Below are positions 12,560 through 59,599 of a stretch of DNA of 64,000 nt, piece after piece. The DNA is taken from the NCBI RefSeq assembly GCF_964355755.1, contig NC_092672.1, positions 5,270,001 to 5,334,000 of the forward strand, read 5' to 3'. How positions within the stretch are numbered: the stretch's first letter is position 1; the number at the start of each line of letters is the position of its first letter. Below the pieces are notes generated by a model. It saw only the letters and a program-made list of their open reading frames with translations, had not been told where the DNA came from and did not search any database. The DNA comes from Antedon mediterranea. Taxonomy: Eukaryota; Animalia; Echinodermata. Both the position numbers and the translations under genes were made by a program.

Positions 12560-15500
12560 ATGGAAAATTTCAATGACGTGGACAGTAAAGCACTTGTACC
12601 TTACAACTCCAATGTTCAGGAGAAAAAGTTTGAAGATGAGAACCATGCCGTTAGGTACAACTTTTTAAAATATACAAACACTTATAAGTACATTTGTGGT
12701 TCAACAGGCTAAAAAGCAAAATGATATTAAATAATCTTAATTAAAGAAAAAAGACAGATAAACATGAACAAAAAAATGTGAAATGGAAAATAGTATTCAT
12801 AAATTTTCGTTTTTTTTTATTTCAGAGAGAGTAGGGAGAAGAGGAACAGCCGTGGAATGTTGGTGTTTAGTCCACAAAGTAACCACGGAACTAGTTCAGG
12901 GACTTCCATTGTAAAGTAAGCAAACTGTGTTATGCTATTTTATTTGATCATGTACCAGCGAGATGGCTCACTTTGCCGCGCAAGTCTATGAACTGTTAAA
13001 GAAAGAAACCTAAATAAAAGAATCATTGATTGAATAAAAGTTTACTTTAGGATAATAAATGTTTTTAAGTTTTAATGAGGGAAAAAAGTATTTTAAAGGA
13101 ACCAATTCAACTTGTAAGGGAAATGATTTCATTTGAAAGAACCATTCAAGTTGTGAAAATATCCCTATTCAACAAATTCAAACATTATTTGTTTTGTTAA
13201 GCTCTGTCTACACTATCAAACTTTATGTGACAACATTTGATGTGCCCATATATGGACATGATGATGTCATATCACTACTATATTTGGGCATCACACTTTT
13301 TTTTCAAACTAATTTGATAGTGTAGACAGAGCTTTACACACATTAAGTAAACTTTTATTCGATTTCCATCTTGAGTACCAGTCATAGAATAGACTCATTC
13401 AACTTGCTGTTCCATTCAACAAGCTGGAAGTCAATATTGCAACTCATGAAAATATTTTCACCATTCAATGGTTACAAAACATTAATTATCATTAACATTT
13501 CTATACAATCATGTGTGTACTACTCTATTATTAAGACATTTGCAAAACATCGATATATATACAACAGTCTAAAATTGATTGTTTTTTTACTGCCTCAGAC
13601 AATACAAATCTCTGGAATATTAATGTATAGTAGGCCTACAGTTGATTTGTAATCATCTATGTTATTAAGTTTAGAGTTATTTGACAAATATATGTATTTT
13701 TATTTTTAATCAGAAACAGTGGAGACGAGGGTAGTGCTATCAGTAAAATGTCAAAGAGAAAGTACAAACAAAATGGTAAACAAAAGTAAGTAAAGATGAT
13801 CAAGAAAGATGGATGTATGACACACAAAACTGGTATTAAATTTATAGATGCACCTCAGGCAGATCCAAGGTGTGGTGGAGGATGGGGAATTAGACCCAAT
13901 CAATTACAACTCCCCAAATTGTGTTATAATGCAAAAGATATGACAGGTCAAGATTTTGATTAAAACACATGTCACCAACTTGCAAATTGCTTTTAAGTGT
14001 AACACTGTGTAAAGCTATACATATACATTGTTCATTGAAATATGACAATTATTTTTTAAAGGTAATTTTAACTTTTCTTTAAAATTTCAGAGATAGTGGA
14101 GATGAAAGTGGCAGTCAGGGAATTTTAGCGTTTAGTCCTAAAAGTAACTATGGAACTTCTCCAGGCACTTCCATTGTAAAGTAAGAGAATTTTTGTTCAA
14201 GCTTAAAGATGTATTGTCCCTTTGACTAATTCCAAAAAAATTGTAAAAAAAGATATTGAAAAAAAGTGGGTCATTTTGAAGTATCATAATAGTTATTAAC
14301 TTTCACCAAAAATTAGTCCAAAAAAAAATCATTTAACTGAAATACAGATGTTTTTTTGTTAAAAATATAACTTGGACTTCCAGTCAAAGTTTTTGATCAA
14401 AACATATCTTATAAATGCAAATTTGCTTGTTTGGCTACTCTGTATGCATAATCATAAAACTTCCTCGCGATCTGTGTGAAAACACCTTCTCAACCGTGAT
14501 GAGTTGTAAACAATTCTAATTAGCATCATGCATAATGCATACTCGTGGTTTGAAAACTTTGTTTACTTTCGCTCGCGACGATTTTCCAGACGAAATATAA
14601 TCAATTAATTTACCTGTTAATTACGTAAACTTGTTGTTTTTGGCTCAAATTTTCGACTTAAAGTTAATAACTTTAATATTACTTTGATATGGCCAATTTA
14701 AATTTAGAATATTTTGACGTTCATTTTTGTGTGTTTCAAGGGACAATACATCTAATTCAAACTTTTAAACAAAAAAGAACTACAAATAATCTTTGCTTCT
14801 TCTAGCTGACATGTATTTGTGTTTGTATTGTGTTGTGGCACCAACTGGTATCAGGGAGAGGGTGCGTGAGTAAGATCAGAAATGGAGCAACAATAGCTGA
14901 ATATGATGATGTTATATATATATTTCTTGATTTTCAAACAGGAATGGTGGAGACGAAGTAGATAATCGTGCTAATGTTGTGTTCAGTCCAAATAGTGCTC
15001 ATGGCAACAGCAGTTCAACCAATCAGAAGTAAGTTGTGTAATACAGAGATGCAGAATTCCTAAAAAACAAATGAAAAAGACAAAGCAGTTAAATTAGCCT
15101 TTTCCAAAATAAAAAATGTTTTTTTATTCTTTTTAAAGAAATTTCTCATATTTAACAACTACTAGTTGAAATATATTTCGTTTGTGTTTTAGTGGTGTTA
15201 AGAAAGAGAACGATATTCATTGGAAAACTGACCACCCTTCTGCTCAAAGAGGTGTTGGTACGCAGATGGCATTTGTACTGGATCGACCTAGGATCGACGG
15301 CAGCCGCCTCAAGATAGAGTCAATTGGTACTGAATCATTCAAAGGCAATAAACAGGGAAAATCCTCAACAGGGAAAAAGTCTTCTGAAAAACAGAATACT
15401 ACAGATGACGATGCTAGTTCAGTAAACGCAGATGCGTCCTACCACGGCGACTGTGTTCATGACATTGTAGAATACTTTGCCACTGATGTGACCACTTTAC

Positions 15501-18500
15501 ATGCATTGCCAAACGTGTTCAAGTCGTGTACGCTACTTGCGAAAAGCTTGTGGGCTATCGTTTTTATGACGGGAGTGTTTTTGTTTTTGTTTCAAGCATC
15601 GTTCGTCATCAACAAATATCGTGATGGACCAATCCAAGTTAACGTAAGTACAGTACTAAAGCCTGTAGCCAAGATTTTTTTTTTCTTCATAAAGGGAATT
15701 CAAGCGTAAGCAAGCACTGTGGACTAAAAGGGTCCAAAACTACTGAAGAAAGTATTGTTGTAGGCCTAGCCAAGTAGATGGAATTTGCCTGCTGACTCAG
15801 CAGGATTGGCCAAATTTATTGTCATCTAATCACTCTGTTGTTGGTGAAGGCTACTTCAGAGGAAAATCACCACAGGCTTGGTATATATTTCATACTGTAA
15901 AACCACGAAAAGAATCCCATGGGCTTCTTTTTTTCTTTTTTTTGAGTGTGCTCTTTTTGTGATGGGTTTCTTTTCGAGGTTTTACAGTATTTTGTTTGAA
16001 GCTTCAAAACTTTCATCAATTCACAGCAATACAAAGATTATTCAGTTTACAATATGCATGTGTACTTTGGTTACTGTTTTATGTATATATTTTTTTCAAT
16101 ACTATCAATTTTATCTCCATTCCAGCTGGAAGTCGTAACCAAATCATCGCTTGAATTTCCAAAAGTTACAATTTGTAACACAAATAAACTACGGCGGTCT
16201 GCTGTCGCTAACTCAAAATATCGTCAAGTTTTGATTGTGGATGAACTTAAATCACTTCCTTATTATGGTAATAAAAAACTCTATACACATATCTATTTAA
16301 TACTATAGTATCTAACATCTATAAGGCCTCAATAGGAATCTTAAACACTGCATCAAAAAATACATTTTTTTGACCAGCATATTATTAATACAGTAAGCCT
16401 ACAACATATTATAAAAATGAAAAATAGTGGGCAGGAATAGCTAATCGCTGTAACTCAACCAGCTACCACTCACATTAAAGTATATTGTTGATTTAGAAAA
16501 TGTTTTCTTTTATATATGTACAGCACCGTGTATAGAGGATGACTTCCAATGTGTCAATGAATTGATTTGTGTCAAACCGTATCTAATCTGCGATGGCGTT
16601 AACCAGTGTCGCGACTTCAGTGATGAATATGACTGCACTTACCGTAAGTCTAAATTTAATTAAGTTAGATTAAGTAATAATTAAATAACTGTTGTATACA
16701 CTTAACTGGTTTAACATACGATTGCCGTGTTCCATATTTTATCTGGCATTGTTGCACTGTATGACTTATATATACTAGATGGTACGCTCGCTTCCCTCGT
16801 GTACCATCTAGGTCGTGCCCACAGATGGTTCTCGAATACACAGTAATTTCAGCGTAAAAAAATGCTTTTTTTAATGTACGTACTGCAGGACGATAATAGT
16901 TATTATTGTTTACAGAAACAAATAAATAGACACGATGATTTATGTATTAAACTGAAATTAGCACACTGGGAATTACTTCCGAAAGAGAAACTTGTCACAA
17001 AATGAGTCCAAATTTGTTATTTGGACTCATTTAAACAAACCCAATTTGTGTTTTGTGTGTAACATTATTTTTTAGGGATGGGGAAGAGGATATGGGTACA
17101 AAGAAGAACAATGTTTTAATATATTATTTATCTACTCAGTAACGAAATATGTTTTTCACTTTGATAGGCCTATAAATAATATACCACTTGATACAGTAAC
17201 ACATTTGCGATTTAATACTTTGTTAAAACTGTCACTGTTATAGTCCATTGAAATAGCATGTACATGTAACGATACACGTACCACTACAACGTTTATGTTC
17301 TTTGTAATTATTAATTACAAACGTTGAGAAGCAACTGTCAGTAGTACAGTTTATTTGTATATTGTACGTTTTATATAACAGTAGGGCCTACTCACAGGCC
17401 TATAAATAATATACCACTTGATACAGTAACACATTTGCGACTTAATACTTTGTTAAAACTGTCACTGTCATAGTCGATTGAAATAGCATAGTACATGTAA
17501 CGATACACGTACCACTACAACGTTTATATTCTTTGTAATTATTAATTAATACAAACGTTGAGAAGCAACTGTCAGTACTACAGTTTATTTGTATATTGTA
17601 CGTTCTATATAACAGTAGGGCCTACACTCACAGTAATACGTTTATTTGTACATGATTGTGTTATACATCTAACAGTACCCACACTCACAGTAAATTCAAT
17701 GGCGACCACAAATGTTAATACTTATTTACAGTAATGTCCAAGTATTGCAATACTTATCTATATATAGGTTTTAGGTTAATTCCCCAAGGGCCAATAAATT
17801 TACCTACAGCTGGTGGTACTTGTGTTAAAGCAAAGAGTTATTATTGGAATGTTCCATTCTTCAGAAATCAATACATTTGTATAAATGTATATTAAATCTA
17901 TCAAAATAGTATTTTTTTAAGAAAATAGGTCTGTCTTCAACATTATGATGCTGTACTCGAGCTGTTCAACCGGTTTTCATCCATTAAAAACAATTATCGT
18001 AGGAGGAGATAGGAAAATGCGAAGCATAGGAGGAGATAGGAAAATGCGAAGCATAGGAGGAGATAGGAAAATGCGAAGCATCCTCGTATTATTGTATGCG
18101 GGTATTTTTCAAGATAGACATGCATTGGACAGTGTATACCACGATCGCAAAACACCCCTATTTGGGGCAAATCGTTGAACCTAACTTCGTTTTAATCGTC
18201 AATAACTAATTATCGAACTCCATTTAATTAGTAAACAGGGTTACATCAGGTGGTTAAAATCAGTATCGAAAGTACGAACCAACTTTATATATCATCGAGT
18301 AAACATTCTAGAAGTAAGGCGCGATTTACCGAATTTTGCCCTTACGTAAATTTATATATAGATATATATAATGACTGGGAATAAACTTGAAAAAAAAAGG
18401 CACCAAAGAGAAAAAAGAATGATTGGATATAAACTTGTGATATTCGTTTTTCAGCATCATGTAAAGAAGGATTTTTCCGATGCAGTAACGGGAGTAATGA

Positions 18501-21500: not shown

Positions 21501-24500
21501 CACATGTCAGGATTTTTTCTAAGGACAAAATTACAACGCCTCTCCAAAGACTTGTAATAAGACTTTGTTTTTATGTAGAGCATCTTGTGTATATGTTTGT
21601 CTTGGGAAACTCTCTCTGAGGGTCCCTAATGATCAGCAATTGCTGGATGGATCACCCTCATTGAATATGGTCAAAACAAACAAAACAAATCTGAGAAGAC
21701 TTGTTCCACTACCAGAACTAGGAGCAAGTCAGCCTCGAACCAATGCCGATTTTTTTACTCTTTAGGTACTGTAAATGTTTTAACCGCTCGGCCATTTGAC
21801 TCACTCATAATATGCAATATTTCCTTCAAAACATTTATAATGTATTGTATTATGGTATTTATTACAGATGATGGCTGTTCAACAACTGAATTTGAGTGCG
21901 ATTATGGTTACTGTATCCCAATCTCCTGGGTGTGTGATGGTCAAATAGACTGTCAAGATTACACAGATGAGACTGGCTGCAACCCAACAACCGTGTCACC
22001 AACAACAACTCCTGTAAATATTCTTCCAGTTAGTGGTTCAGGCTCAGGACCTATTGTTACCAATCAGCTGCCGGTGATAACACCGCGCATGACCACATTA
22101 CCCATCACTACAAATGCTCCTACAACTGCTCGACTATTAACGACACTAGGGTTAGAAAACTGTAAGTTTTCGATATAAATCTCTATACAATATAATTATA
22201 TTTTAGTTTTAGTATTCAATATATTAAGATATTAAGCTTTAGAACCTAACAAATTGTCCTCGTTCTGTATGGAACTATCGCCCGTATTCGAACTTCGAAC
22301 TACGACTAAAGTCCGGTTTAAGAATACGGGCGTATGTGTTGACATCATCTAAAGGCAATATGTTTACAATGCCATTCCATACCATACAAACATTGTTGGC
22401 ATATTTATGTGCAAATAAGCTACTAGCATGACGAATATTAAAACACTAGTTGTAAAGTTTGCGCTACACCCTGTATTTCCAAAAGAAAATAACGTATGGT
22501 TTAGAGTGTCTCGATGTTTCAGTTCTTGAACTACAACCATCTCCTTATGAATTATTTTTCAGTTCGCGTTTTCGATGGCACACTGGCTGTCAACAAAATA
22601 AACAATGAAGATATTTCATACTCAACAGCATTGTCTATCCCTGGAAATATTGCGTATGTACAGTACGAGTTACTTTTCAATAATTTGGTAAGATCATATT
22701 TCATTGTAATATGGACCTATAAATCTAATTTATAGATCCTTGGTAATACTTAGCATTGTAATTAACACCTTTACATAAACTCTTTAAGTTCCCAGTGATA
22801 TACTGAAAATTAATCAATTAATTATAAACAATGAAAATGGGAATAAGAAAAAAATAGATCCAAATCCGTAATTTTCTGCTTGATATGCAGAGAAATCCTA
22901 CCACTGGGACTTCTATTGAATGGTCCTATTGGATTGGATAGCAACTCGAATGTCCTTGTAATGGTACAGTTGAATAACACTAGTTCTCAATTGTACTCAC
23001 ATGCAACAAAGATCAAATTGATATACCCTCATCTTTGTAATATTGATTCACAAAGAAGAGTTACAGGTAGTAGAGATAATTTGGTAATACATTTTTGTTG
23101 TATGTGGGAATTGTGTATAAAGGCAGAATGTTCAGTTTCGCCCTAAGATAAGCAGTACTTGCACTGCAAAGAAAACAAGTTTGAGATACTGTAAAATGGA
23201 AGTTTCCAATCACAAATTTCTTTTTTTTCTAGTTGCAAGCTGAGTATTCACAATTATCACCTACAACTGTTATGGTCAATGGTTTCAGCCCTGGAAGCAT
23301 TATCGTTCATTACACTCTATTGTTTGATCAATCTTCACATCTGACCGTCTATGAATTGGCTGATGTATTTTCGTTTGCGCCCTCAGAAACGACAGCTACA
23401 ATCACCAACGACGGTAGGACATTTGAATATAGACAGTCATCAACAAATATTTATTGTAAGTATTTTTTTGTATTCTCATTTAAATTGCACAAAATAAACA
23501 ATGTTTGGTTTTGAGAACCACAATTCTGGCATTTTTTAAGTTGATGCAAGACTGGTACGAAGTATGCAGATAATATAAATTTACTTTACCTATATCCTGT
23601 AGTGGCACTGTGGCTTTGTAGTTAACATGCTTGCTTATCAATCCTTGGTTCTTTGGTTCACATCCTGAGCATCCTTTAAGTCTCATTTAAGAATTGGTCT
23701 ACAAATAATGGGTCTTCTATTGTGTAATTTGTGAGTCATGCGCTTGCTCTTGATTTGTTTAAACATTTTTTTAGTCATTTGTGTGTATATTTTCCCATAA
23801 TGTATTTTTAAATGGATGAACAAATGTAAGATGTGATACAATGATTTTTAAAAGTAATGTTCTCTAGTAAATTTTATTTTTCAGCTCGATGCCAAAATGG
23901 TGATTTCTCCTGTGATGGCGAGTACAATGGAGGTACCTGTTTGCCTTTTGATTTTAGGTGTGATGGTGTATGTGACTGTAGGGATAGGTCTGATGAGCTT
24001 GACTGTGATAATGCTGTTGATTGCCCCATTTGGGTTCCAACAACACTACCTCCAACAGAAGCAGTTTACACAGGACCAACAATAGTAGCACAAACAACTA
24101 ATTTACCAACAACTGTTGCACCAACAACAGTTATACCAACGACTGAGTCACTAACGACAGAGTTACCAACAACCATGGTACCAACAACAGTTATACCAAC
24201 GACCATGGTACCAACAACAGAGATACCAACAACCATAGTACCAACTACAGAAAAACCAACAACAGAAAAACCAACAAGCATTGTACCAACTACAGAAAAA
24301 CCAACAACAGAAAAACCAACAACCATTGTACCAACTACAGAATTTGAAACTACCGAGGTACAAACTATGAAAATACCAACAACTATGAAACTAATGACAG
24401 AAATAACAACTACCGAGTTACTAACTACAGAATTGACGACTACCGAGCTACCAACTACAGAGAAACCAACAACTACAGTACCAACTACAGAATTGCCAAC

Positions 24501-27500
24501 TACTGAGCGGCCAACTACAGAAACACCAACAACCCTCAATCCAACTACCATGGTCCTAACTACAGAATTGCCAACAACTGTCATGCCAACCACAGAATTG
24601 CCAACGATCATAGCACCAACAACTGTTCAACCAACAACTGAAAGAATACCTACAACCATGGTACAGACTACAGAGAAAATATCCACCATAGAACAAACAA
24701 CGAACCAACCTACCATAGAAACAACAAACATAGAACTGATCAGTACATGGCCCGCTGACAGAGAGTCATTTTTTACACCTCCAGTATCACAAACTACAGG
24801 TAGGCCTACTGTAGTCTATTATGTATAGATTGTATGGATTTCTGAAAGACCATTAAGCTTTGTGTACACTATCAAACTAGTTTGACAAAAAAATGTGATG
24901 TGACCAAATATCGTGGCGATATGCCCAAATATCGTGGTGATATGATGTCATCATGTCCATATAAGGGCACATCACATTTTTTGTCAAATAATTGTTTGAT
25001 AGTGTAGACAGGGCTTTAGGGTAGATGAAGTTGTTGTGCACAATTTAGTCCTGTAAGCTGCAAGTGACAAGTTATTCTCAATGTATTAGAATAGTATAGT
25101 AATGTTCCTACAGAGTAAAATTGTTCAATATTATCTAAATTTTAGGTTTTTCTGCAGAGAGCAGACAGGTTGATAGAACTTATTCAGGTTCCTTTACTGC
25201 TACCGAACTAGATGGTGAACCTCTTCAGTATGACCCTGCTTTGAACGACACAACATCTGAAACATTCCGACAAACCCGAGGACTCTTTACAACAATGGTA
25301 GGAGGAGACTTTATTTTGCATTATGCCTGCTACTATAAAACATAGTTTGATTATTGTGCGAAATAACATGTTTTTTTCTTAATAGTTACTACAATAAAAT
25401 TTGCTAAATACTTTACTTTACTAATTATTGGTTTCAGGATAACAAAACAAAAGTAAAACATACACTGCTGCATAATTTAGAATATAATGTTTTCTTGTGT
25501 GTTTATATAAAGGACATTTCAGAATAAAATGAAAGGTGTCCTCTAAAAAATTACATTTAGGTTTTGTGTGAGGTACTCACCAATGTATTAATGCAATGAC
25601 AATACAGTTATTACAAATTTACACATATGACAGCTGCATCAAAGAACATAGCATTTAAGTTTGAGTGTCCATTCTGATAGAGTGGTTCTAAATTATATTT
25701 GTTGTGAGAAGCAGTGGCCGTATTCACCAATCACAAGTGAGATTACCCTTAAATATTAAGTATTTCACTTAACTCAATAGATATTTAAGTATTTCACTTA
25801 ACTCAATAGATATTTAAGTATTTCACTTAACTCAATAGATATTTAAGTATTTCACTTAACTCAATAGATATTTAAGTATTTCACTTAACTCAATAGATAT
25901 TTAAGTATTTCACTTAACTCAATAGATATTTAAGTATTTCACTTAAATCAATAGATATTTAAGTATTTCACTTAACTCAATAGATATTTAAGTATTTCAC
26001 TTAACTCAATAGATATTTAAGTATTTCACTTAACTCAATAGATATTTAAGTATTTCACTTAAATCAATAGATATTTAAGTATTTCACTTAACTCAATAGA
26101 TATTTAAGTATTTCACTTAACTCAATAGATATTTAAGTATTTCACTTAACTCAATAGATATTTAAGTATTTCACTTAACTCAATAGATATTTAAGTATTT
26201 CACTTAACTCAATAGATATTTAAGTATTTCACTTAACTCAATAGATATTTAAGTATTTCACTTAACTCAATAGATATTTAAGTATTTCACTTAACTCAAT
26301 AGATATTTAAGTATTTCACTTAACTCAATAGATATTTAAGTATTTCACTTAACTCAATAGATATTTAAGTATTTAACTTAACTCAATAGATATTTAAGTA
26401 TTTCACTTAACTCAATAGATATTTAAGTATTTCACTTAACTCAATAGATATTTAAATATTTCACTTAACTCAATAGATATTTAAGTATTTCACTTAACTC
26501 AATAGATATTTAAGTATTTCACTTAACTCAATAGATATTTAAGTATTTCACTTAACTCAATAGATATTTAAGTATTTCACTTAACTCAATAGATATTTAA
26601 GTATTTCCCTTAAATTGTATTCACTTAGATAGGTGATTTTTTAATTTTAAGGGTTAGTTTTTTCCTAGCCTAATGGTGAATACGGTCACTGTTCTTTATA
26701 TCATGCCTTCATAGGATTTCCGGCCAGAAATTGAATATCTGGAATGTACATAGGAAATTCTACATACCCTGTCAGGTACATCACTACAAGTAAACTTTTA
26801 TTTTCAGTTGGAAGGTGTGTTTAACACTACACCAGGTTTTGTGAATGTAACAGTTGATGGCTTTAGCTCTGGAAGTTTGATTGTTAATTTTCATGTTTTG
26901 GTCAAAACTGATGATACAACAGTGGCAGGTGATCAGTTGACAAATGCCTTCACAGAAAACACTGAAGATGGCTTATTTCAAAACAACGATTTTGTTATAT
27001 TATTCAATCCGGAAAGCGTATCTGTAGAAGGTAATATATATTATCTCTTAGTGTACATGACTTCTGTAATCCGATAGGTCAATAATGAGATATAATTCCG
27101 TATTACGCCCATTTACTCAGTAAAGCGGATCAGAAGGGTAATATATCCTGTAATACCTGTTTGATGTTTCTATGCGCGCGTTGTTTATGTATTGTATTGT
27201 ATTTTTATCGTTGAGCGCATTCGTACTTGTGATTTCAACCATCGAATATGGCCTCATTGAATATGTAACCAAAACGCAGATATTTCCCGTGAACAAGCAG
27301 GGTGTAACTAATAATATTCAATTTATTTTGGGATTTCTGGTCCATTGAAAAAAAAAAGGAAAAAGTGTTATATGAACAAAACATTCATAATGTTTATGTA
27401 AAAACCTAAAAGATCTCTTCTTTTCCCATTTCACTATAGTAATTTCTGTACTGTTTTCAGCACTTCTTAAAAATATATTTGGCCTATTTAATTTTGTATT

Positions 27501-30500: not shown

Positions 30501-33500
30501 AGAGCTACCAATTACTGATGTACCAGAGGAAGAAGGTCAATCAGACATTGTACCAGAAGAAGAAGGTCAATCAGACATTATACCAATTACTGATGTACCA
30601 GAGGAAGAAGGTCAATCAGACATTATACCAAGTACTGATGTACTAGAGGAAGAAGGTCAATCAGACATTATACCAAGTACTCATGTACCAGAGGAAGAAG
30701 GTCAATCAGACATTATACCAAGTACTGATGTACTAGAGGAAGAAGGTCAATCAGACATTATACCAAGTACTCATGTACCAGAGGAAGAAGGTCAATCAGA
30801 CATTATACTAAGTACTCATGTACCAGAGGAAGAAGGTCAATCAGACATTATACCAAGTACTCATGTACCAGAGGAAGAAGGTCAATCAGACATTATACCA
30901 AGTACTCATGTACCAGAGGAAGAAGGTCAGTCAGACATTATACCAAGTACTCATGTACCAGAGGAAGAAGGTCAATCAGACATTATACCAAGTACTCATG
31001 TACCAGAGGAAGAAGGTCAATCAGACATTATACCAAGTACTCATGTACCAGAGGAAGAAGGTCAATCAGACGTTATACCAAGTACTCATGTACCAGAGGA
31101 AGAAGGTCAATCAGACATTATACCAAGTACTCATTTACCAGAGGAAGAAGGTCAATCAGACATTATACCAAGTACTCATGTACCAGAGGAAGAAGGTCAA
31201 TCAGACATTATACCAAGTACTCATGTACCAGAGGAAGAAGGTCAATCAGACATTATACCAAGTACTCATGTACCAGAGGAAGAAGGTCAATCAGACATTA
31301 TACCAAGTACTCATGTACCAGAGGAAGAAGGTCAATCAGACATTATACCAAGTACTCATGTACCAGAGGAAGAAGGTCAATCAGACATTATACCAAGTGC
31401 TCATGTACCAGAGGAAGAAGGTCAATCAGACATTATACCAAGTACTCATGTACCAGAGGAAGAAGGTCAATCAGACATTATACCAAGTACTCATGTACCA
31501 GAGGAAGAAGGTCAATCAGACATTATACCAAGTACTAATGTACCAGAGGAAGAAGGTCAATCAGACATTATACCAAGTACTCATGTACCAGAGGAAGAAG
31601 GTCAATCAGACATTATACCAAGTACTCATGTACCAGAGGAAGAAGGTCAATCAGACATTATACCAAGTACTCATGTACCAGAGGAGGAAGGTCAATCAGA
31701 CATTGTACCAAGTACTCATGCACCAGAGGAAGAAGGTCAATCAGACATTATACCAAGTACTCATGTACCAGAGGAAGAAGGTCAATCAGACATTATACCA
31801 AGTACTCATGTACCAGAGGAAGAAGGTCAATCAGACATTATACCAAGTACTCATGTACCAGAGGAGGAAGGTCAATCAGACATTGTACCAAGTACTCATA
31901 TACCAGAGGAAGAAGGTCAATCAGACATTATACCAAGTACTCATGTACCAGAGGAAGAAGGTCAATCAGACATTATACCAAGTACTCATGTGCCAGAGGA
32001 GGAAGGTCAATCAGACATTGTACCAAGTACTCATATACCAGAGGAAGAAGGTCAATCAGACATTATACCAAGTACTCATGTACCAGAGGAAGAAGGTCAA
32101 TCAGACATTATACCAAGTACTCATGTACCAGAGGAAGAAGGTCAATCAGACATTATACCAAGTACTCATGTACCAGAGGGGGAAAGTGAATTAGTTCTAC
32201 CAAGTGAAGCAGAAGAAGGTGGATCACAACGGCGTAAGAAACGCCAGACAAATGAAGGTCTGCAACCATTTAATCAATTTTTCCTTCAAGTTTTGTAGAA
32301 TTAATACTCAATTCATAGCTATTAACCTAACTTTTTTTGTCAATGTAAATTTATAGTATTTTTATCATTTTGATATGTGGATCTGCATTATGAACCATAA
32401 GTCTAAGATTTTTTTACGGTATTCCAATTTAATTTGTTATGGCAGCTGGTGACTGTGGTGAAGGACTGTTTTCTTGTTTTGTTGGATCACAGTGTATTCC
32501 ACAAGACTTTCAATGTGATGGCACACTCGATTGTCAAGATGGTAGTGATGAGGAGGACTGTGGTAAGTATAGGCATGAGAACTGAGATCTAGTTATTCAA
32601 TTAATAACCACCTCATGAGGAATTAGTTGAAATCAAATTAGACCGGCTCTCCAACTCAAAGCATTGATGTTCATTACAAATACAAGATAATTGTAATTAT
32701 ACATTCCATGTATATCATAACTATTAGCAGAACTTATTATGTTACCAACAAAATATCCATTTAAAGATCTATTGTCCCCTAAAAATAAAGGTCAATAAAA
32801 TCCGACTTTGAATAGGCCATTTTGCAGTTTTAATAAAGTAATATTCACGTCTGTAGAAAAAAATCAACAAAAATAATTATTTCACTTATAAAATGACAAA
32901 ACAAATGAATTAAACAAATAATTTAAACCAAAAATCATCATCTGACAGACAATTTAGGTATTAATGTTTTGCTTTAGATTACATTTTTTCAGAGAATTTT
33001 TTTTTTTTTATCCATTTTTTTGTCAAATTGGCTAACTAGTATGTAACATTAAAATGGCATATTAAAAAAAAAAATTTTAATTTAACTGCCATTTTATGAT
33101 TTCATTGCTTTCATTTTTTTTAGACTGTGATGGTTTTGTTTGCGAGTCAGATAACACCTGTATTTATTCTGGACAAGTTTGTAATTATGAAGAAGACTGT
33201 GCTGACGGAAGTGATGAGTCAGAAGAAGTCTGTGGTGGTAAATATAAATAGATACATTTTTTGTTTGTACTTTATTGATTTATTTGTAGTGGTGATGATG
33301 GAATTTTGATGATGACAACAACAATGATGATGATGATGATGATAACAGAGGAAATATCGGAACCACCATCTTGTGTTGTGTATAACCAACAGCCCCTACC
33401 CAATAAGACCATAAAAAAAGGAATACAAAAAGAAAATCTCCTGATATTCTATTTCATCTGCCTCTTCAGCTAAAATGTAATTTTCTTAATTTTTAGATAA

Positions 33501-36500: not shown

Positions 36501-39500
36501 CTGTAAATATAATAAACTAATTTAAAACATATAGTAATATTGTACAATTAAGATATTTTATAAGATATACTGCTGGACAAAAGACACAGCAGCAATGTGA
36601 TTGACAAGACATGGCATGTATTATTTGAAGACCTTAATTACAGTTTTTGTACCATGCAAAATTTCCTTTATGTCTACCATTTCTGTTCATCTTGTGTGTG
36701 TAAAAGCTCTTCAAGGCCTTACCTGTTTTGGGAGTTTTTAGACTACTTTGTAAAGACAATTTATAAATGTTTTCATGATTGATTTTTCTATTGAACTTTC
36801 TAGATTCTTGTCCAAATGACTATGTTGCGTGTCCATCTGGTGGATGTATCCACAAATACCATATGTGTGATACAGCCTATGATTGTTTTGATCAGAGTGA
36901 TGAAGATGATTGTTATGGAGTTGGTAAGTACAATGTATATGGGGGAGTAATAACCTGCGACTTGCTGCACCTGTGCTACTGTGGTGCATTTGCGCACAGG
37001 TGTGAACAACACAGCTTTCTCCTTTCCTTAGAGTCCCTTGGTGTAGTACAGCTGCCACTAAATGACACTCATTCATCTGTCTAAAACGACAGGAGTACAC
37101 TGGTAACGCCCTACTGTTTTGAAAAATGAACTGGGTTCTTTAAAGTGCACACGTGCAAGATGTGTACACTGAACCTCCAGTTTTAAGTACTTTCAGGAAG
37201 ACTTGTTCTACTAACAGAACAATGGCCAATCGGTGACTTAACCTTTGCTGATTGTGTATAGCTATGGTTTGCAGCGCCCCTGCCTTAACCACTAAACCAC
37301 TCGCCTGTTGTTGTTACCATTTGTACTCCTACATATATATACTATACTATATTGCCAATAATATATTCTATTTATTTCTTCCCTTAATCTAATATGTGAT
37401 GCCACTGGCGACGTGGTTCCCACAAGGACGTAACGCAACGCAAGTGAATTGACCAATCACAAGCGATGGCTTATTCGCTTGTGATTGCTAACTGTCTATA
37501 ACTCCGCTTGTCATTGATTAAAACGCTTGCGTTGCGTTTACGTCCTTGCGTTACGTTCTAGTGGGAACCAAGCTTTAAGCAATTATTTGTTAATCATAAT
37601 AATACAATACAAATTTTGTTTAAGGTGGAAGCATTGTCAACCCTTTTACACCTGGATGGATGGATCCGTATCAACACATTACTACAGAAAGTTCAATCTA
37701 TGAGAGTTTTGTCAATGATTTCTATACAGATCTAAAATTTGATAGAGTAAAAGGGTTTGATCCACCGGATTGGAACGGGTTCTTTGCTTATAGTTCAACT
37801 GCCGATTACAGTGATGCAGAGGATGTATTGAAGCTAACCAAGGAAGAGATATCTCTGCTTGGCCACCAAATCGATGACTTTATTTTACAGTGCACTTATG
37901 ATAAAGTTGATTGTAGCAGAGATGCGTAAGTAGATATAAATGGCATCTGTGATGTAATGACTATGAGCGCTCACTGGCTAAACCCATGTGGCCCAGAGCT
38001 TAAGGGGCCCCCAAAGCATGAGCAGTCCAATGAAACTACCCATCGTTGGAGGGCCCCCTTAGGAGTACACAACCTTACAACACTGAATGTCATTTTTTAT
38101 TGCATGCTATCATCTTTTAAACCATAATACTAATGGCATTTGTAGATGAAGATGCTGATTTTTTTGTGAATCATGTTTCTTTACTGTTTTTTATAAAGGG
38201 ACTTACAACTACAGCACCATTAGAAATTGTTATTATTTTGCTTTTAAGATTTTACGAAACACAGGATGACAAATATGGAAATTGCTTTACATTTAATGAT
38301 CCAAGACAGTACAATGAAACATTTTCTTCCACAAGAACTGGAGCTAGTAACGGTAAGAATTATAATGACAGTCGCTTAAATTGTACCATCATTGGTCTTT
38401 GATCACATGTGCATAAATGCACAATAAAAACCTTAGCACACTATATTAATAATAGGAAGGTACTAATGTTCAAATAGACGTGTTCTGTGACTACACAGCT
38501 GTCGAGTCAAAAAGTCACTCTTAGAAACATCTTCATTTTTGTTAGGATTAATTGGGTTGGGTCCTGAATCTATTCATCTTCATATGTTCCCTCCTTTGTT
38601 TTTTTCAGATGTTTTATCATGTTTTTATGTATCAACGACCTCTTTTCATATTATGTATGATATATAAATAAACACACACAAACAAACTGAACATTCACAG
38701 CAGAATGACTATTAGACAGCCATGACAGAATAATTGTACATATTATCTTAATTTGTTACTTTTATTAAAACAATAAATTATGTGTTGTAGGATTGAAGCT
38801 AACTTTGAATATTGAGCAGTCGGAGTACATAAGTTTATTTGGAAAAGATGCAGGAGTTCGAGTAGCAATCAACCCGACATCTAAACCTGAGTATCCGTAT
38901 GAAGATGGCATAACTGTACGACCTGGTGTCATTACGTCAATAGGTCTACGTTACGTAAGTAATTCAGTTAGAATATGGTACTTATAGCTGGTATTAAAAT
39001 ATATTTATTCTGTATAAGTAAATTCTATGTTTAAATTCAATTGTTAAAGTATTGGTTTTATTCTTGTGATTTTTTACCTAATCTTAAGCCTCTGTCTACA
39101 CTATCAAACTAGTTTGCAAAAAAAAGTGTGATGTACCCGAATATGGGAGGGATATGATGTCATCATGTCCATATATGGGCACATCACATTTTTATTGTCA
39201 TAAACTTTTAGCTTAATTTGTCCTTCTTACTTTATATTAGAATTATATTTCAAGACTCTGGACAAAAACTGGCAGTTGTACCACTGGACTTGATGAAATT
39301 GCCGAACTTAAAGAAAACAATGATCCCTTCTTTGAGGGCTATGATACGTACGATGAACGGGTAAAGAATTGTCATTGTTATTATTATTATTAATCAGAGA
39401 ACTCATTAAGAAAAAACAGTAATACGAAAAAAAGTTTTTATGAAGCTCTCAACAAAATAGAAGGTTCTATAAGGATGGACATTCAGATAAAACAAAAACA

Positions 39501-42141
39501 CTTAATCAAAAATCAAAAAGTCATATTATAATGCATGGTTTAAAAAGATGTTTGTGCTCTGAAGTCTATGTAATAAAGGATTGACTTATATAACAACATA
39601 CACACTCAATTCTGTGCATAAGAGTAGGCCTACACAGTTCCTGCTGCTGTACATCATGTGTACTACGCTATAACATTTCAAGTTCACTTATCTTTCCTTC
39701 TATAGACTTGCCAAAAGAGATGCATAAATCAGTACATTAATGACATATGCAACTGTACGGATACATTAGTGGTTGAAGGAACACCATGCAACCTACTTGA
39801 AAAGGACCAAGGTAAACACCATACTGAACTTGCCAACTCCTAGGTACAACCAAAACCTGGTGTGGTACACGTATATCATGGTACAAAACACACCATAAGT
39901 ACAAGCTTTACTGTCTGAGATCAGCAAGTTTACCTCACCCATACATGTACAATATATCAATTGCATTCTATTGTGAATTCAATATAAAAGCATACTTAAA
40001 TGTTTTTTTTTAATCTTTAGATGTTTGCAGACAACTCATGAATCATTTTTACCAAAAAAATGCTCTTGGTTGCGATTGTCCGCAGTCTTGCGAGTAAGTA
40101 GAGCTATAGCTTGGTGGTTAAAATGCTTGCCTTCCAATCCCAAGGTCCAGGGTTCAATCCTGACCTAGTGCTAGGGTTGTAACTCACGACTCTTTTAACT
40201 CCACACCCTATGCATCAAACGAGACTTAGTTTATAAGCACGAGAAATTATAAAATAGTTCATTCTGTAAATGGAGAGTTGCTCGCTGTTAGATGCATATA
40301 AAGGTATTTGTATTAATTACTTTGTGAAAGTTCATTTTAAAATATTCAATAATTACTTAGCAGATGTTGGCCTAAAGTGTTATTTTTCTCAGATATTCTA
40401 TTAGTTACCAGCTAAGTTGTTTTTTTCAGTGAGGTTTACTATTCAATAACTCAATCGCAATCATTGTGGCCTTCAAATATATACTTGGTAAGAACTATCT
40501 ATATTAAGATTTAGTTTTTTTTAGTTTGTTGGTTCACATTTGGAGAAAAAAATGCATTATGAATTTTCGTTTTGTTTATATTGATGAATTTTTCCTTGAT
40601 AGAGAAGGATAGAGGTCGCCTAATGCAATGCTCCCTTTGTAATTATTACACCACGCTCTGTCTACACTACCAAACTAGTTTGAAAAAGTGTGATGTGCAC
40701 AAATATGGTAGTGATATGCCCAAATATGGTAGTGATATTACATCATCATGTCCATATATGGGCACATCACATTTTGTTGTCATATAAAGTTTGATAGTGT
40801 AGACCAAGCTTAACAAATGTTAGAAGTGAATAAGAAACCATGTTTATGTCTGTGCAAAATGTAGCTCATTAGATACACATTTTTCTACCCTACTGACACA
40901 ATTCAAAGTCATCATCATCTTAAATGCTAATTTAAGAAGTACGTTTTTGAGCAAGCATATGTATAAGTAATCTTTCTTTATTGTAGGACTCATTAAAGAG
41001 GATCATCCATACAGAAAACAGCAAGACTAAAGCCTTACAGACTAAGGAAGATATTAGGTAAGTACGTGTATGAATAACATGTAGCAGCCATTCTGAACAG
41101 AGGTGTATCTAAGGCCTTTCTTTGACTCAAAATTACCCTACTAAATTCATATGTTGACTATACTGGGACCTTTGCATTTTGTGTCATTGGTTGTCATCGA
41201 GACCTGGAATCGGCCAAAAGGAATCTAGTAAGGAAGCACACTCCAATAGTGAGTGTCAGAATACACATCTTGCATCAACTAGGTAATTTCAAATCGTCCT
41301 CTAAATGAAAGGCTACAGCTCTGTTACCACTTTAAAATGCCTGTAATTTAGCATCTTAAATGTCCAACCTTTAGAGGAGGTGAGGACATTGTTATCTCAT
41401 CCTTTTAGTTGAGTAAATATTTTAAAAATATTTATGATTTTTATTTATTTTATCAGAGAAAACCTTGTTAGACTTGAAATTTACTATGAAGAACTGAACT
41501 ATGAGAGTACTGTGGAATCATCAGCTTATGGGGTAGGACACAATGTCTTATTTTTTACAGGCTTTATACAGTAGTGTTACTAAGCAACTACAAGTGTCAA
41601 AGTATACAAAAACTACAGTACAGTAGAACACCTATTATGGGACACCTTCTAAACAGTATCCATTAAATTTAATAATAGTGTCATCCCCTGAATATGGGTT
41701 GGCTATAGTGTTAATATATACATTGCCCCTTAGTATTATGGATGTGGTTGAGTAGTAGCCCCTTGTCAGTTTCATGAAATAGTGTGTCCTTTTAATGGAG
41801 ATGCCCTGAATAGGGGTGTACTAAAGGAGGGGTCCCACTGTAACTACTTGCTATCTTCTAATGTTATTAACATCTTGCGTTTTTAGGCTCCAGACCTTTT
41901 TAGCGATTTAGGAGGAACCGCCGGGTTATATCTCGGCCTCTCCGTCATCAGTATTCTCGAATTCTTTGAGCTAGCCTACGTTATCATTCAGTACATGTGT
42001 CGACAACTTAAAACCGGCGTGCAGAAGCGAATAGAAGCGGCGAATAAAATGGATCACGAGAAAATGGAAAGCCAGCGACCATATAAGCGACCTCAGGAAC
42101 CACCGCATTGTTATTATAATTATAAGTCTAAATTCAGATAA
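12560..42141 (+). CDS. Gene A: giant DEG/ENaC (amiloride-sensitive sodium channel family) subunit with LDLa x16, SEA x3, mucin, acidic repeats and EGF inserted in the ectodomain (~3416 aa)
   Basis: GT-AG exons read by eye with consistent phases: 12560-12654, 12826-12915, 13714-13785, 14091-14180, 14942-15028, 15193-15643 (TM1), 16126-16267 (FPKVTICN), 16524-16643, 18455-18577, 19177-19287, 19937-20110, 20786-20947, 21868-22161, 22563-22687, 23233-23455, 23885-24799, 25146-25297, 26808-27030, 27543-27790, 28312-32257, 32446-32562, 33124-33237, 33750-33875, 34382-34492, 35172-35297, 35537-35647, 35836-35955, 36368-36502, 36804-36923, 37625-37925, 38249-38352 (YGNCFTFN), 38791-38954 (GLKLTL), 39241-39360, 39706-39811, 40021-40093, 40430-40487 (WPS), 40987-41057, 41457-41532, 41887-42141 (TM2 [23 protein letters not shown]). 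The total is 10251 nt, a multiple of 3. The start and a few acceptors (19937/19943, 25146/25158) are ambiguous. Confidence 0.9.
13200..13333. mobile_element. MITE family 1 copy with TTA TSD
   Basis: TTA|AGCTCTGTCTACACTATCAAA...TTTGATAGTGTAGACAGAGCT|TTA. A 3-bp TWA TSD is typical of PIF/Harbinger. Confidence 0.88.
14207..14753. mobile_element. Non-autonomous DNA transposon, Kolobok-like (TTAA target, AG terminus)
   Basis: TTAA|AGATGTATTGTCCCT...AGGGACAATACATCT inverted termini. The right-hand TTAA is degenerate. A related end sits at 32761. Confidence 0.6.
15193..16267 (+). CDS. Gene A exons encoding pre-M1, TM1 and the post-M1 DEG/ENaC signature
   Basis: [17 protein letters not shown]...[29 protein letters not shown]|[25 protein letters not shown]. 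Confidence 0.92.
16524..22161 (+). CDS. Gene A LDLa modules 1-6 (one phase 1-1 exon each)
   Basis: Six-Cys LDLa consensus with DCxDxSDE-type acidic motif, e.g. [36 protein letters not shown] and [35 protein letters not shown]. Confidence 0.92.
16775..18362 (-). mobile_element. Non-autonomous Helitron (same family as 4110-6836) in a gene A intron
   Basis: The minus strand reads A|TCTATATATAAATTTACG...hairpin...ATCTAG|T. It has an internal ~228-bp duplication (17168-17625) and a 27-bp triplication (17999-18081). Confidence 0.88.
19490..19700 (-). mobile_element. tRNA-derived SINE (family S1), reverse orientation; related copies at 21320-21800 and 37095-37305
   Basis: The minus strand begins GTGAGTGGCCGAGCGGTTAAG (A-box-like). 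The body GTACACTGGACCTAC..GTCCTTATCTGAGAAGACT is shared between copies. Confidence 0.6.
20119..20279. mobile_element. MITE family 1 copy, inserted 8 nt after a splice donor
   Basis: Family-1 TIRs and core directly after GTAAGTAA. Confidence 0.8.
21432..21688 (+). mobile_element. tRNA-derived SINE (family S2) nested inside an S1 copy
   Basis: A-box TGGCTTGGTGG, B-box GGTTCAAGTTCC and an A-rich tail (CAAAA)n. It splits the S1 sequence GTCCTTATCTG|AGAAGAC with ATCTG duplicated. A reverse copy lies at 34597-34853. Confidence 0.7.
22563..23455 (+). CDS. Gene A SEA domain 1 (two exons)
   Basis: RVFDGTLAV...[23 protein letters not shown]|LQAEY...[19 protein letters not shown]. This is the SEA pattern with the F-x-x-G-S-I-I-V motif. 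Confidence 0.85.
23885..24799 (+). CDS. Gene A LDLa 7 plus Thr/Pro-rich mucin-like stalk (PTTxx pentapeptides)
   Basis: ORF 23857-24828: CQNGDFSC...[16 protein letters not shown], then about 45 degenerate PTT(E/V/M/I)x units. Confidence 0.9.
24856..25015. mobile_element. MITE family 1 copy with TTA TSD
   Basis: TTA|AGCTTTGTGTACACTATCAAAC...GTTTGATAGTGTAGACAGGGCT|TTA. Confidence 0.82.
25146..27030 (+). CDS. Gene A SEA domain 2 (two exons)
   Basis: [35 protein letters not shown]|LEGVF...[21 protein letters not shown]. Confidence 0.87.
25712..26691. repeat. 29-bp minisatellite (~30 copies) enclosed by 18-bp inverted repeats
   Basis: Unit ATATTTAAGTATTTCACTTAACTCAATAG from about 25752 to 26610, flanked by CAGTGGCCGTATTCACCA and TGGTGAATACGGTCACTG. 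Confidence 0.92.
27543..28560 (+). CDS. Gene A LDLa 8 plus divergent SEA domain 3
   Basis: [35 protein letters not shown], then [35 protein letters not shown]|LQETL...[20 protein letters not shown]. The phase-0 intron position matches SEA1 and SEA2, but the GS motif is absent. Confidence 0.75.
28576..32185 (+). repeat. Coding acidic tandem repeats in the 3.9-kb exon of gene A
   Basis: About 34 x 42 nt ([14 protein letters not shown]), about 12 x 42 nt ([14 protein letters not shown]) and about 36 x 45 nt ([15 protein letters not shown]). The frame is open throughout and followed by RRKKR. Confidence 0.95.
32446..36923 (+). CDS. Gene A LDLa 9-12, EGF-like module, LDLa 13-16 (15 degenerate)
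   Basis: Phase 1-1 exons. The EGF exon 35172-35297 reads [36 protein letters not shown]. Confidence 0.88.
34000..34221 (+). mobile_element. tRNA-derived SINE with Deu/Nin-like core and 12-bp TSD
   Basis: A-box TAGCCGAGTGG, B-box GGTTCAAATCC, core CTCAGCTGTATATGAGTACCTG..GGAACTGGCCACC. TCTTTACTGTAA sits on both sides (33988-33999, 34222-34233). A degraded copy lies at about 58370-58600. Confidence 0.8.
34597..34853 (-). mobile_element. tRNA-derived SINE family S2, reverse copy
   Basis: Reverse complement of 21432-21688, with a triplicated GATCCATCCAGCAATTGCT segment. Confidence 0.7.
35970..36300. repeat. Degenerate (GACT/AACT)n microsatellite
   Basis: Runs of gactgact/aactaact. Confidence 0.7.
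37412..37575. mobile_element. MITE family 2 copy
   Basis: GTGGTTCCCAC...GTGGGAACCAAGCT with a largely palindromic interior. Confidence 0.7.
37625..42141 (+). CDS. Gene A C-terminal channel core (finger end, palm, beta-ball, thumb, knuckle, TM2)
   Basis: [15 protein letters not shown]; YGNCFTFN; [13 protein letters not shown]; AGVRVAI; CQKRC...CNC...C...C...CDCPQSC; SLWPS; [16 protein letters not shown]; [25 protein letters not shown]. Confidence 0.95.
39087..39212. mobile_element. MITE family 1 truncated copy
   Basis: Left TIR and core present, right TIR mostly lost. Confidence 0.65.
40655..40811. mobile_element. MITE family 1 copy
   Basis: GCTCTGTCTACACTACCAAACT...AGTTTGATAGTGTAGACCAAGCT. 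Confidence 0.8.
41621..41840. mobile_element. Tc1/mariner-type MITE (TA TSD, CAGT termini)
   Basis: TA|CAGTAGAACACCT...GGGGTCCCACTG|TA. Related GGGACACC/GTGTCCC fragments at about 1830, 3493-3590, 9395-9500 and 51247-51331. Confidence 0.6.
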
Positions 42142-59500: not shown

Positions 59501-59599
59501 TGATTCGGACTTGATAAACTTTTCCTTTAGTTTCAAGTCGGTCATGCTGGCAGGAGTTGGTGTCCTAACCCAAAAAATACTGTCTGAGTTGGCATCCAT
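44508..59599 (-). CDS. Gene B: DEG/ENaC subunit with 10 LDLa modules and an acidic repeat region in the ectodomain (~1558 aa); paralog of gene A
   Basis: Minus-strand exons: 59599-59243 ([13 protein letters not shown]1), 58137-57996 ([10 protein letters not shown]), 56008-55889, 55247-55122, 54547-54437, 54008-53865, 53309-53193, 52451-52311, 51939-51823, 51186-49501, 49302-49183, 48944-48813, 48723-48604, 48222-47925, 47570-47464 (YGNCFVFN), 47347-47184, 47048-46926, 46789-46684, 46589-46517, 46269-46212 (WPS), 46088-46018, 45288-45213, 44675-44508 ([23 protein letters not shown]). The total is 4677 nt. Many exon lengths equal those of gene A (142, 120, 111, 164, 106, 73, 58, 71, 76). Confidence 0.92.
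44769..44914. mobile_element. MITE family 1 copy with TAA TSD
   Basis: TAA|AGCTCTGTCTACACTATCAAACT...ATAGTGTAGACAGAGCT|TAA. Confidence 0.88.
45031..45177. mobile_element. MITE family 2 (Harbinger-like), most complete copy; others at 48981-49074 and 56097-56222
   Basis: TTA|AAGCTTGGTTCC...GGGAACCAAGCTT|TTA, with inverted interior arms GACGTAACGCAACGCAA..TTGACCAATC / GATTGGTCAA..TTGCGTTGCGTCTACGTC. Confidence 0.8.
45767..45915. mobile_element. MITE family 1 degenerate copy
   Basis: TCTCTGTCTACACT...TGTAGACAGAGA. Confidence 0.7.
49740..51100 (-). repeat. Coding acidic tandem repeats in the 1686-nt exon of gene B
   Basis: 72-nt unit ([24 protein letters not shown]), about 6-7 copies at 50620-51100. 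105-nt unit ([35 protein letters not shown]), about 7 copies at 49760-50495. Followed by RRRR. Confidence 0.9.
52731..53159. mobile_element. Longer Harbinger-like non-autonomous element with internal repeats
   Basis: Degenerate termini AGCCCAGTTTCACTTG / CGAGTGTAGACGGGAT resemble family 1. Internal repeats TCTACACAAACTTTGGAAAA and GGTAGTT..CGAAGTTTGTCAA. Confidence 0.45.
53376..53471. mobile_element. MITE family 1 short copy
   Basis: GCTCTGTCTAC..ATCAAACT / GTTTGATAGTGTAGACAGAGCT. Confidence 0.7.
54017..54237. repeat. (AAAAAATACTGT)n-like minisatellite abutting a gene B splice acceptor
   Basis: About 16 degenerate 12-15 nt units. Confidence 0.85.

Follow-up and report, generated by a model that had tools for sequence, protein, structure and literature searches.

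We describe here gene A, a single receptor-channel fusion gene on the forward strand of a 64,000-nucleotide stretch of the Antedon mediterranea genome (contig NC_092672.1, positions 5,270,001 to 5,334,000; hereinafter the window), whose product is a DEG/ENaC subunit with a very large modular insert in its finger domain. This reading is supported by spliced contigs, by the conserved positions of the relevant junctions and by alignment to ASIC1/ENaC structures. It agrees with an original prediction, made from the letters of the window alone, of a channel of about 3400 aa with a modular finger insert: we find a 3416-aa open frame with Pfam ASC matches on both sides of the insert, and the interpretation as a fusion seated in the finger likewise stands. 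Gene A is one extreme member of an apparently undescribed ambulacrarian modular-ectodomain DEG/ENaC family that goes unnamed in public gene models, and a convergent paralogue, gene B, lies in the same window.

The 39 hand-modelled exons of gene A (12560-42141) join into 10,251 nt with a single open frame running from an ATG at 12560 to the sole stop at 42139-42141, and all 38 introns are of the GT-AG type. The protein has just two hydrophobic stretches, which represent the transmembrane (TM) segments TM1 (around aa 257) and TM2 (around aa 3347); the insert comprises the 2632 residues from aa 343 to 2974. That every exon from TM1 to TM2 splices in frame, as had been stressed earlier, is correct; however, it is weak evidence on its own since phase 1 is shared by 20 of the 23 introns 7-29, so that any module or the whole insert is skippable in frame, and a direct splice from exon 7 to exon 30 would leave a 784-aa channel. 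The cytoplasmic N-terminus includes near-repeated units with a V-F-S-P-x-S motif, encoded by the duplicated phase-2 exons 2, 4 and 5 (within 12826-15028).

Transcript support comes from X1, one run of one study, the RNA status of which is our guess but which yields spliced contigs. In its 2826-nt contig, exon 30 occupies 500-801 and exon 39 begins at 1573 (the two pieces listed directly); by arithmetic, these positions match exactly the combined lengths of exons 31-38 and, upstream, those of exons 26-29 plus 14 nt. The same-depth differences in this contig fall in exons 27, 28, 31 and 32, and its 3′ untranslated region reaches 43139. In X1, then, the last LDLa block (exons 26-29) is spliced to the channel core. 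Further splices are 10>11, which is listed, and 6>7 and 13>14>15>16 from contig arithmetic, bringing the supported junctions to 18 of 38; two more rest on flanks shorter than 31 nt, and the 28 nt found 5′ of exon 6 in one contig are too little to count as a bridge from exon 5. Of the two junctions flanking the insert that had been singled out for checking, 36923/37625 is thus present in an X1 contig, whereas 16267/16524 (7>8) is not reached, the exon 6-7 contig stopping 20 nt before it. The position of this 7>8 junction nevertheless recurs in the gene models of 25 database proteins and in gene B. A nested gene is unlikely because intron 7 is only 256 nt long and has no in-frame Met before exon 8. 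Finally, 7 of the 12 insert-exon differences among those listed are synonymous, as compared to an expectation of 22% (p about 0.007).

Judged from its predicted protein, gene A is a DEG/ENaC, with two TM segments on either side of a large extracellular loop, an ASC signature with a Cys-rich thumb and the selectivity filter. Among the 30 exon pieces scanned, the Pfam ASC profile (PF00858) matches exons 6, 7, 32 and 39, and exon 31 weakly; the orthologue from Anneissia scores 219 bits against it. Exons 30-39 encode the remaining finger helices, the palm, thumb and knuckle, and TM2, whose G-x-S filter is intact as G-L-S. Exon 30 alone finds no channel match in PDB, ASIC and ENaC receive similar phmmer scores, and the Atlas returned ordinary ASC clusters only, at 0.82. 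The W-P-S knuckle motif may point to clade B (ENaC/DEG/FaNaC-like) rather than clade A (ASIC-like). The palm/thumb/finger/knuckle fold is predicted on an 831-aa relative (P0021) and not on gene A itself: the model keeps the channel fold with the insert in place (mean predicted local distance difference test score 74.5, core mostly >80; Foldseek TMt 0.68-0.80 to ASIC/FaNaC), its CUB region not being resolved. As to the location of the insert, exon 7 aligns weakly with residues 78-106 of human ASIC1 (E 0.04-0.08) and the match of the relatives to ASIC1 resumes at about 159-161 beyond the insert, which places the latter in the finger, in the interval between helices alpha1 and alpha2. The pre-TM1 motif (15500-15505) reads His-Ala in gene A, confirmed at the DNA level by an X1 contig, whereas 34 of the 36 sequences examined, namely gene B and 33 database proteins, have His-Gly. 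This is a variant residue and no ground to exclude gene A from the DEG/ENaC superfamily. The original prediction mentioned neither this change nor the alternative donor in the furin site nor the neighboring paralogue.

The order of modules in the insert is as originally predicted, with qualifications for individual modules. Fifteen of the 16 LDLa-type exons score above the Pfam cut-off, the remaining one (exon 28) being degenerate (E = 0.2). The aromatic and two-Asp pattern, a fingerprint with a role in Lys-ligand binding, is kept in 8 of 15 LDLa modules, and those adjacent to the channel (1-3 and the last) are without the canonical aromatic residue. The EGF-like module has the six-Cys spacing and 62% identity to the orthologue but draws no Pfam EGF call; the whole block of exons 21-29 is 57-73% identical to its Anneissia counterpart. 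A weak Pfam match of exon 22 to 'Omega-toxin' was rejected as an overlap of its Cys pattern with that of LDLa. The mucin-like tract in exon 16 has repeat periods of 15/30/45/60/90 nt, and exon 20 encodes about 1210 aa of acidic tandem repeats (Asp+Glu 29%, Lys+Arg 1%) in units of 42 nt x45, 126 nt x5 and 45 nt x36. All periods of the coding-exon repeats are divisible by three, as compared to 29 for the large intronic array.

Of the three predicted SEA-like domains, SEA2 and SEA3 are well supported at the sequence level and SEA1 partly. Pfam and PDB searches with the split half-exons gave no match; the call comes from a custom profile assembled from 20 SEA copies, taken from SEA-bearing proteins to which exon 18 had led. 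That exon retrieved six proteins from a representative library, of which four of the five scanned carry Pfam SEA over the same stretch, the fifth being an unrelated PASTA protein and the sixth too long to scan. The profile recovers SEA2 at E 3e-15 (partly circular for its C-terminal half), SEA3 at 6e-7 and SEA1 as a partial match at 1e-3, whereas the best score among the controls (20 shuffles, two reversed proteins, gene B and P0001-P0047) was 1.3 bits. All three domains are split by a phase-0 intron at a matching helix. Ser-Gly-Ser-Gly motifs occur near SEA domains at aa 628 and 1366 (exons 13 and 20); these are possible glycosaminoglycan attachment sites.

The predicted RRKKR motif at the end of exon 20 depends on the splice donor: it is present with donor 32257 and lost if the in-frame donor 32233 is used. 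On our own matrix, derived from just 59 donors, the two score -3.7 and 2.3, respectively; the pair is possibly a splice switch, or else a cryptic site. The Anneissia orthologue model retains the motif (RRKKRQ). The motif of gene B also holds a donor sequence, which is out of frame and may therefore be incidental. Across the family, 11 of the 15 echinoderm-clade proteins have R-x-K/R-R in their insert (against an expectation of 1.1 from shuffles), each time followed by the last three to eight LDLa modules, and in five of six LDLa-free echinoderm relatives (0.03 expected).

Core-based searches recovered 39 database proteins combining ASC with LDLa at the same site, from eight species (Amphiura, Acanthaster, Patiria, Asterias, Anneissia, Ptychodera, Saccoglossus, Glandiceps). 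The suspicion voiced in the original prediction that LDLa-bearing DEG/ENaCs might already exist in invertebrate annotations was thus well founded; in RefSeq they go by 'uncharacterized' or 'LRP2-like'. The orthologue of gene A is Anneissia japonica XP_033114115.1 (70% identity over 840 aa, 81% in the core), which retains four LDLa, the EGF-like module and four further LDLa after the furin motif; its model covers the C-terminal 998 aa only and, as with several other database models, is without TM1. Other relatives include Saccoglossus XP_077866593.1 and Patiria XP_038045203.1. Beyond LDLa, payloads are swapped among members, including HYR, SRCR, kringle, PAN, CUB, F5/8 and TSP1 (the kringle label on P0010 and P0012 coming from the UniRef name and our own reading rather than Pfam). 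Like gene A, these proteins have the same insertion points and orthologous proximal LDLa modules and fall in one clade; unlike it, they are 766-1720 aa long, a 1940-aa model merging two genes, and a search for long relatives (1748-4990 aa) returned only two models, both merging tandem genes. None of the 47 other proteins tested has SEA or mucin, which makes gene A the sole carrier in that set, nor does any of the relatives examined have an acidic repeat of more than 1000 aa. The architecture as such belongs to a family that RefSeq models already contain. The lack of LDLa members from sea urchins and sea cucumbers is not evidence of absence since our first search missed the orthologue, which is about 80% identical.

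In a midpoint-rooted tree of 47 cores, 39 rows (the LDLa-bearing proteins and one partial model without LDLa) separate from eight LDLa-free rows with support of 100/99, and 15 echinoderm rows group at 99/98; the tree contains no ENaC, ASIC or FaNaC references and excludes P0002, P0056 and P0057, the cores of P0030 and P0034 being too short. The first LDLa starts 34-35 aa past the anchor in both window genes and in 23 of the 25 database proteins scored, five proteins having been left out because the pattern missed their C-anchor. LDLa1 of gene A best matches the first module in 23 of 24 proteins and LDLa2 the second in 22 of 24; positional matches fall to 14 of 24 for LDLa3 and 13 of 24 for the last module, and the middle modules show no such order. 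By these comparisons LDLa1 and LDLa2 are positional orthologues across the family, the design of which reads as a fixed adaptor with a swappable payload. Taken by its finger-site LDLa chain and its place in the same core clade, gene A is to be counted among these unnamed ambulacrarian LDLa-insert DEG/ENaCs. Sister to them are LDLa-free starfish and sea urchin channels (P0040-P0045), of which the five from starfish have a furin motif at the same finger position, preceded by a low-complexity Ser/acidic insert in the two examined; such furin-motif channels possibly represent the ancestral state. Lancelet DEG/ENaCs (P0047, P0056, P0057) have Xlink, F5/8 and kringle inserts and no LDLa; in these proteins furin-like motifs follow finger helix 1, and the P0047 model merges two tandem genes.

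Features of the window (positions counted from its first nucleotide)
Feature	Position	Strand	Content
Gene A exons 1-5	12560-12654, 12826-12915, 13714-13785, 14091-14180, 14942-15028	+	Cytoplasmic N-terminus, short repeated units; open frame, GT-AG
Gene A exon 6	15193..15643	+	Pre-TM1 His-Ala motif, then TM1; Pfam ASC 4-54; X1 15437-15643 with 0 differences
Gene A exon 7	16126..16267	+	beta1-beta3, finger helix alpha1; ends at phase-1 intron, the insert start; Pfam ASC 63-88
Gene A exons 8-13	16524-16643, 18455-18577, 19177-19287, 19937-20110, 20786-20947, 21868-22161	+	LDLa 1-6, Ser/Thr/Pro linker
Gene A exons 14-15	22563-22687, 23233-23455	+	SEA-like domain 1, G-S-I-I-V motif
Gene A exon 16	23885..24799	+	LDLa 7 and Thr/Pro-rich mucin-like tract (256 aa, Ser+Thr 39%)
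Gene A exons 17-18	25146-25297, 26808-27030	+	SEA domain 2, G-S-L-I-V motif
Gene A exons 19-20	27543-27790, 28312-32257	+	LDLa 8, SEA domain 3 (without G-S motif), acidic repeats, RRKKR
Pair of in-frame 5′ splice donors separated by 24 nt	32233..32257	+	32257 keeps RRKKR, 32233 would remove the RKKR furin motif
Gene A exons 21-25	32446-32562, 33124-33237, 33750-33875, 34382-34492, 35172-35297	+	Part of the LDLa 9-12, EGF-like, LDLa 13-16 block
Gene A exons 26-29	35537-35647, 35836-35955, 36368-36502, 36804-36923	+	Rest of the LDLa 9-12, EGF-like, LDLa 13-16 block
Gene A exons 30-34	37625-37925, 38249-38352, 38791-38954, 39241-39360, 39706-39811	+	Channel core (part of 37625..42141)
Gene A exons 35-39	40021-40093, 40430-40487, 40987-41057, 41457-41532, 41887-42141	+	Channel core (part of 37625..42141)
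Gene B, convergent paralogue	44508..59599	-	23 coding exons, 1553 aa
Open frame	62199-62933	+	245 codons, no Pfam match; perhaps an exon of a neighboring gene
Intronic array	25756-26613		29-bp x30, 98% matches
Array at window start	1-1230		440-bp x2.7
Array in gene B intron	54017-54237		14/15-bp
Interspersed element, examples	13200-13340, 20120-20280, 40650-40810, 44770-44930		Short, inverted ends; like a miniature inverted-repeat transposable element

The interspersed element listed last is found at very high copy throughout the window and dominates the read tables. Gene B, a coding model only with no spliced RNA piece among those listed, shares with gene A the insertion points and the core intron positions, keeps His-Gly intact and has one GC-AG intron (after 46926). 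Its insert comprises seven LDLa modules, a Tyr/Asn-rich stretch, about 500 aa of acidic repeats, RRRR and three LDLa modules. The acidic spacers of the two genes each have an Asp+Glu fraction of 0.29, but their repeat units are unrelated; thus, they are alike in charge rather than sequence, as would be expected of a spacer that sets length.

Several known systems share one or other aspect of gene A. The vertebrate ENaC alpha/beta/gamma subunits (PDB 6WTH, 9BLR) have the same core and an extra furin-site domain between the finger helices; in PMC6197857 this protease-sensitive GRIP domain is placed between alpha1 and alpha2. However, GRIP is a compact beta-strand domain of about 100 aa with two cuts, as opposed to 2632 aa of shuffled modules with a single furin motif, and none of six relatives passes the ENaC subfamily cut-off (TIGR00859, 218-318 bits against 428). 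MEC-4/MEC-10 of C. elegans resemble gene A in the proposed matrix tether, which in their case consists of separate proteins and in gene A would reside in the subunit; again, none of the six relatives reaches the nematode degenerin cut-off (TIGR00867, 598). FaNaC (PDB 8ON7, 7YVB) and ASIC1 share the fold, as judged from the P0021 model, and the finger/thumb gating, but their ectodomains are compact, peptide- or proton-gated and without a modular insert. C. elegans EGAS-1 to -4, compared here by description, likewise join a DEG/ENaC to extracellular modules, namely EGF repeats rather than LDLa, SEA and mucin, and gave no current in oocytes (PMC10424705). MUC1-type SEA mucins, adhesion GPCRs and Notch offer a parallel in that their long glycosylated arm has domains which stay associated after cleavage and are proposed to come apart under force (PMC10556640), although these are single- or seven-pass receptors, whereas the arm of gene A is mounted on an ion channel and is at first a loop. 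LRP2/megalin has LDLa clusters, but gene A has its LDLa inside a two-TM channel and no YWTD propellers (the beta-propeller trait of LRP/LDL receptors) were detected in the 30 exon pieces or the Anneissia orthologue; the 'LRP2-like' name of several relatives therefore reflects shared modules only.

As a working model, which we favor tentatively and at rather less than even odds, gene A encodes a furin-cut, self-tethered mechanosensory DEG/ENaC subunit, all the gating steps of which we infer. Cleavage by furin at RRKKR would split the insert into two arms, one of 2268 aa attached to the TM1 half and one of 364 aa attached to the TM2 half. The long mucin/SEA/acidic arm, which with its mucin, its SEA domains and a long acidic spacer of low conservation looks like a transmembrane mucin ectodomain mounted on the gating corner of a channel, would anchor the subunit to the surface coat or matrix as a built-in tether, and a pull on it would gate the channel. 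The channel-adjacent LDLa modules lacking the aromatic residue might form a fixed adaptor seated on the finger helices; reach, and entanglement in the glycocalyx, might come from the mucin and acidic repeats; and the distal canonical LDLa modules might bind matrix proteins. SEA1 and SEA2, with motifs resembling the GSVVV cleavage site of MUC1 (PMC4456727), may undergo self-cleavage and so give way when the arm is overloaded. The altered His-Gly motif makes it probable that gene A is the tether-bearing subunit of a heterotrimer, for example with gene B. In favor of the model, the finger is where gating is centered in this family, FaNaC is gated by finger closure (PMC11026163), SEA domains autocleave and come apart under force (PMC10556640), and a matrix-tether model has been proposed for MEC-4 and ENaC (PMC10148893). 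More speculatively still, the family may constitute a class of undescribed ambulacrarian 'adhesion ion channels', in which a finger LDLa adaptor is combined with an exon-shuffled payload slot; gene A would be its transmembrane-mucin version, with a force-loaded tether releasable through furin and SEA and donor-switched cleavable and uncleavable forms.

A number of observations weigh against the self-tethered model. The tether role is a proposal from the protein's make-up, and the ancestral role of the family need not be tethering, since gene A is alone among the proteins tested in having SEA and mucin. In MUC16, a predicted GSVVV-like site was not the one cut (PMC4456727). The better-scoring in-frame donor, 32233, would delete the furin motif of gene A. 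R-x-K/R-R occurs in the insert of only one of 26 hemichordate members against 3.1 expected (one further protein has it just before the counted window), and strict furin motifs are absent from four brittle-star members; furin cleavage is therefore not essential to the family. As to the transcript, junctions 7>8, 8>9, 9>10, 11>12, 12>13 and 16>17 through 24>25 are without an RNA contig, no reads map to 25741-32199, which leaves the SEA2, SEA3 and acidic-repeat exons and the donor pair 32233/32257 without transcript support, and two X1 contigs read unspliced into introns 9 and 15, meaning that X1 also contains precursor or DNA. Finally, the SRCR, kringle, PAN and CUB payloads of the relatives fit ligand recognition equally well.

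This last point leads to the alternatives, which are not fully exclusive of the self-tethered model or of one another. The strongest, though still improbable, holds that gene A and its relatives are macromolecule-gated: the LDLa modules and payloads would recognize a ligand, whether a protein (in solution or on a surface), a glycan or one of microbial origin, and the finger would move without force. The LDLa fingerprint retained by about half of the gene A modules would serve such a role, payloads vary by subclade with many paralogues per genome, as in a receptor repertoire, and FaNaC binds its ligand in the finger (PMC11026163). Yet the LDLa modules beside the channel are precisely those that lack the aromatic residue, and most canonical ones are hundreds of flexible residues away, which would make for poor coupling unless the arm is loaded. 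A less probable alternative treats the insert as a giant GRIP-like inhibitory domain, primed by furin and shed by a second cut, made by an extracellular protease or through SEA self-cleavage, that opens the channel, with the modules docking the protease. Modular serine proteases have an overlapping set of modules. Moreover, the insert occupies the same position as GRIP, and the furin motif may predate LDLa since it is present in LDLa-free echinoderm and lancelet channels. Against this, a repeat-rich insert of 2600 aa far exceeds the needs of inhibition, the hemichordate members mostly lack the motif, and no second conserved protease site came to light, although no search was aimed at one.

Marginally weaker is the case for a mainly structural subunit, with little part in gating, that anchors or traffics heterotrimers to the matrix or a membrane domain. 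Modules of the LDLa and mucin kinds commonly serve in adhesion and sorting, and the rare His-Ala variant of gene A would fit a poorly gating subunit, given that replacing the Gly of His-Gly lowers the open probability of ENaC (PMC7308080). However, TM2 and the G-x-S filter are intact, the core is highly similar to that of the orthologue, and the insert sits at the gating site, not in a tail. We consider it quite unlikely that gene A is a sensor of calcium, pH or mineral, its acidic repeats and Ca-dependent LDLa binding Ca or calcite in skeleton-forming tissue with coupling to the pore: the composition of the acidic tract and the acidic spacers of gene B and LDLa-free relatives would be in keeping with this, but most family members, including all hemichordate ones examined, have no long acidic tracts. 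Least probable by far is a gene-model artefact, whereby the module exons would lie in a nested gene or be mostly skipped: the in-frame 7>30 skip, the lack of RNA over 7>8 and the database models missing TM1 are outweighed by the X1 contig joining exons 26-29 to the core, the short Met-free intron 7, the recurrence of the 7>8 junction and the excess of synonymous differences.

A keyword search of the literature found no paper on an LDLa-insert DEG/ENaC architecture, although subscription journals and most supplements may mention such combinations and some queries with 'DEG ENaC' probably missed the slashed spelling. In the text available, the terms LDL and lipoprotein do not occur in the DEG/ENaC phylogeny papers PMC9822975, PMC10507113 and PMC9949801, nor LDL in PMC10148893; channel terms do not occur in the main text and two text supplements of PMC4729200 or the main text of PMC10855680. 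The uncharacterised ambulacrarian channels that PMC10507113 places in clade B are presented there, in that same portion, with no mention of LDL.

The tether model of DEG/ENaC gating has been hard to test as the tethers are separate matrix proteins missing from heterologous cells (PMC10148893). If our reading is true, a self-tethered subunit, along with a natural series of paralogues that share their attachment points and differ in payload, would make it directly testable by deletion and swap. The family, concealed in annotation by its 'uncharacterized' and 'LRP2-like' names, also indicates that large modular inserts can be accommodated in the finger, a point of relevance to the diversification of gating modes in DEG/ENaCs, and it offers a natural template for receptor-gated channels.

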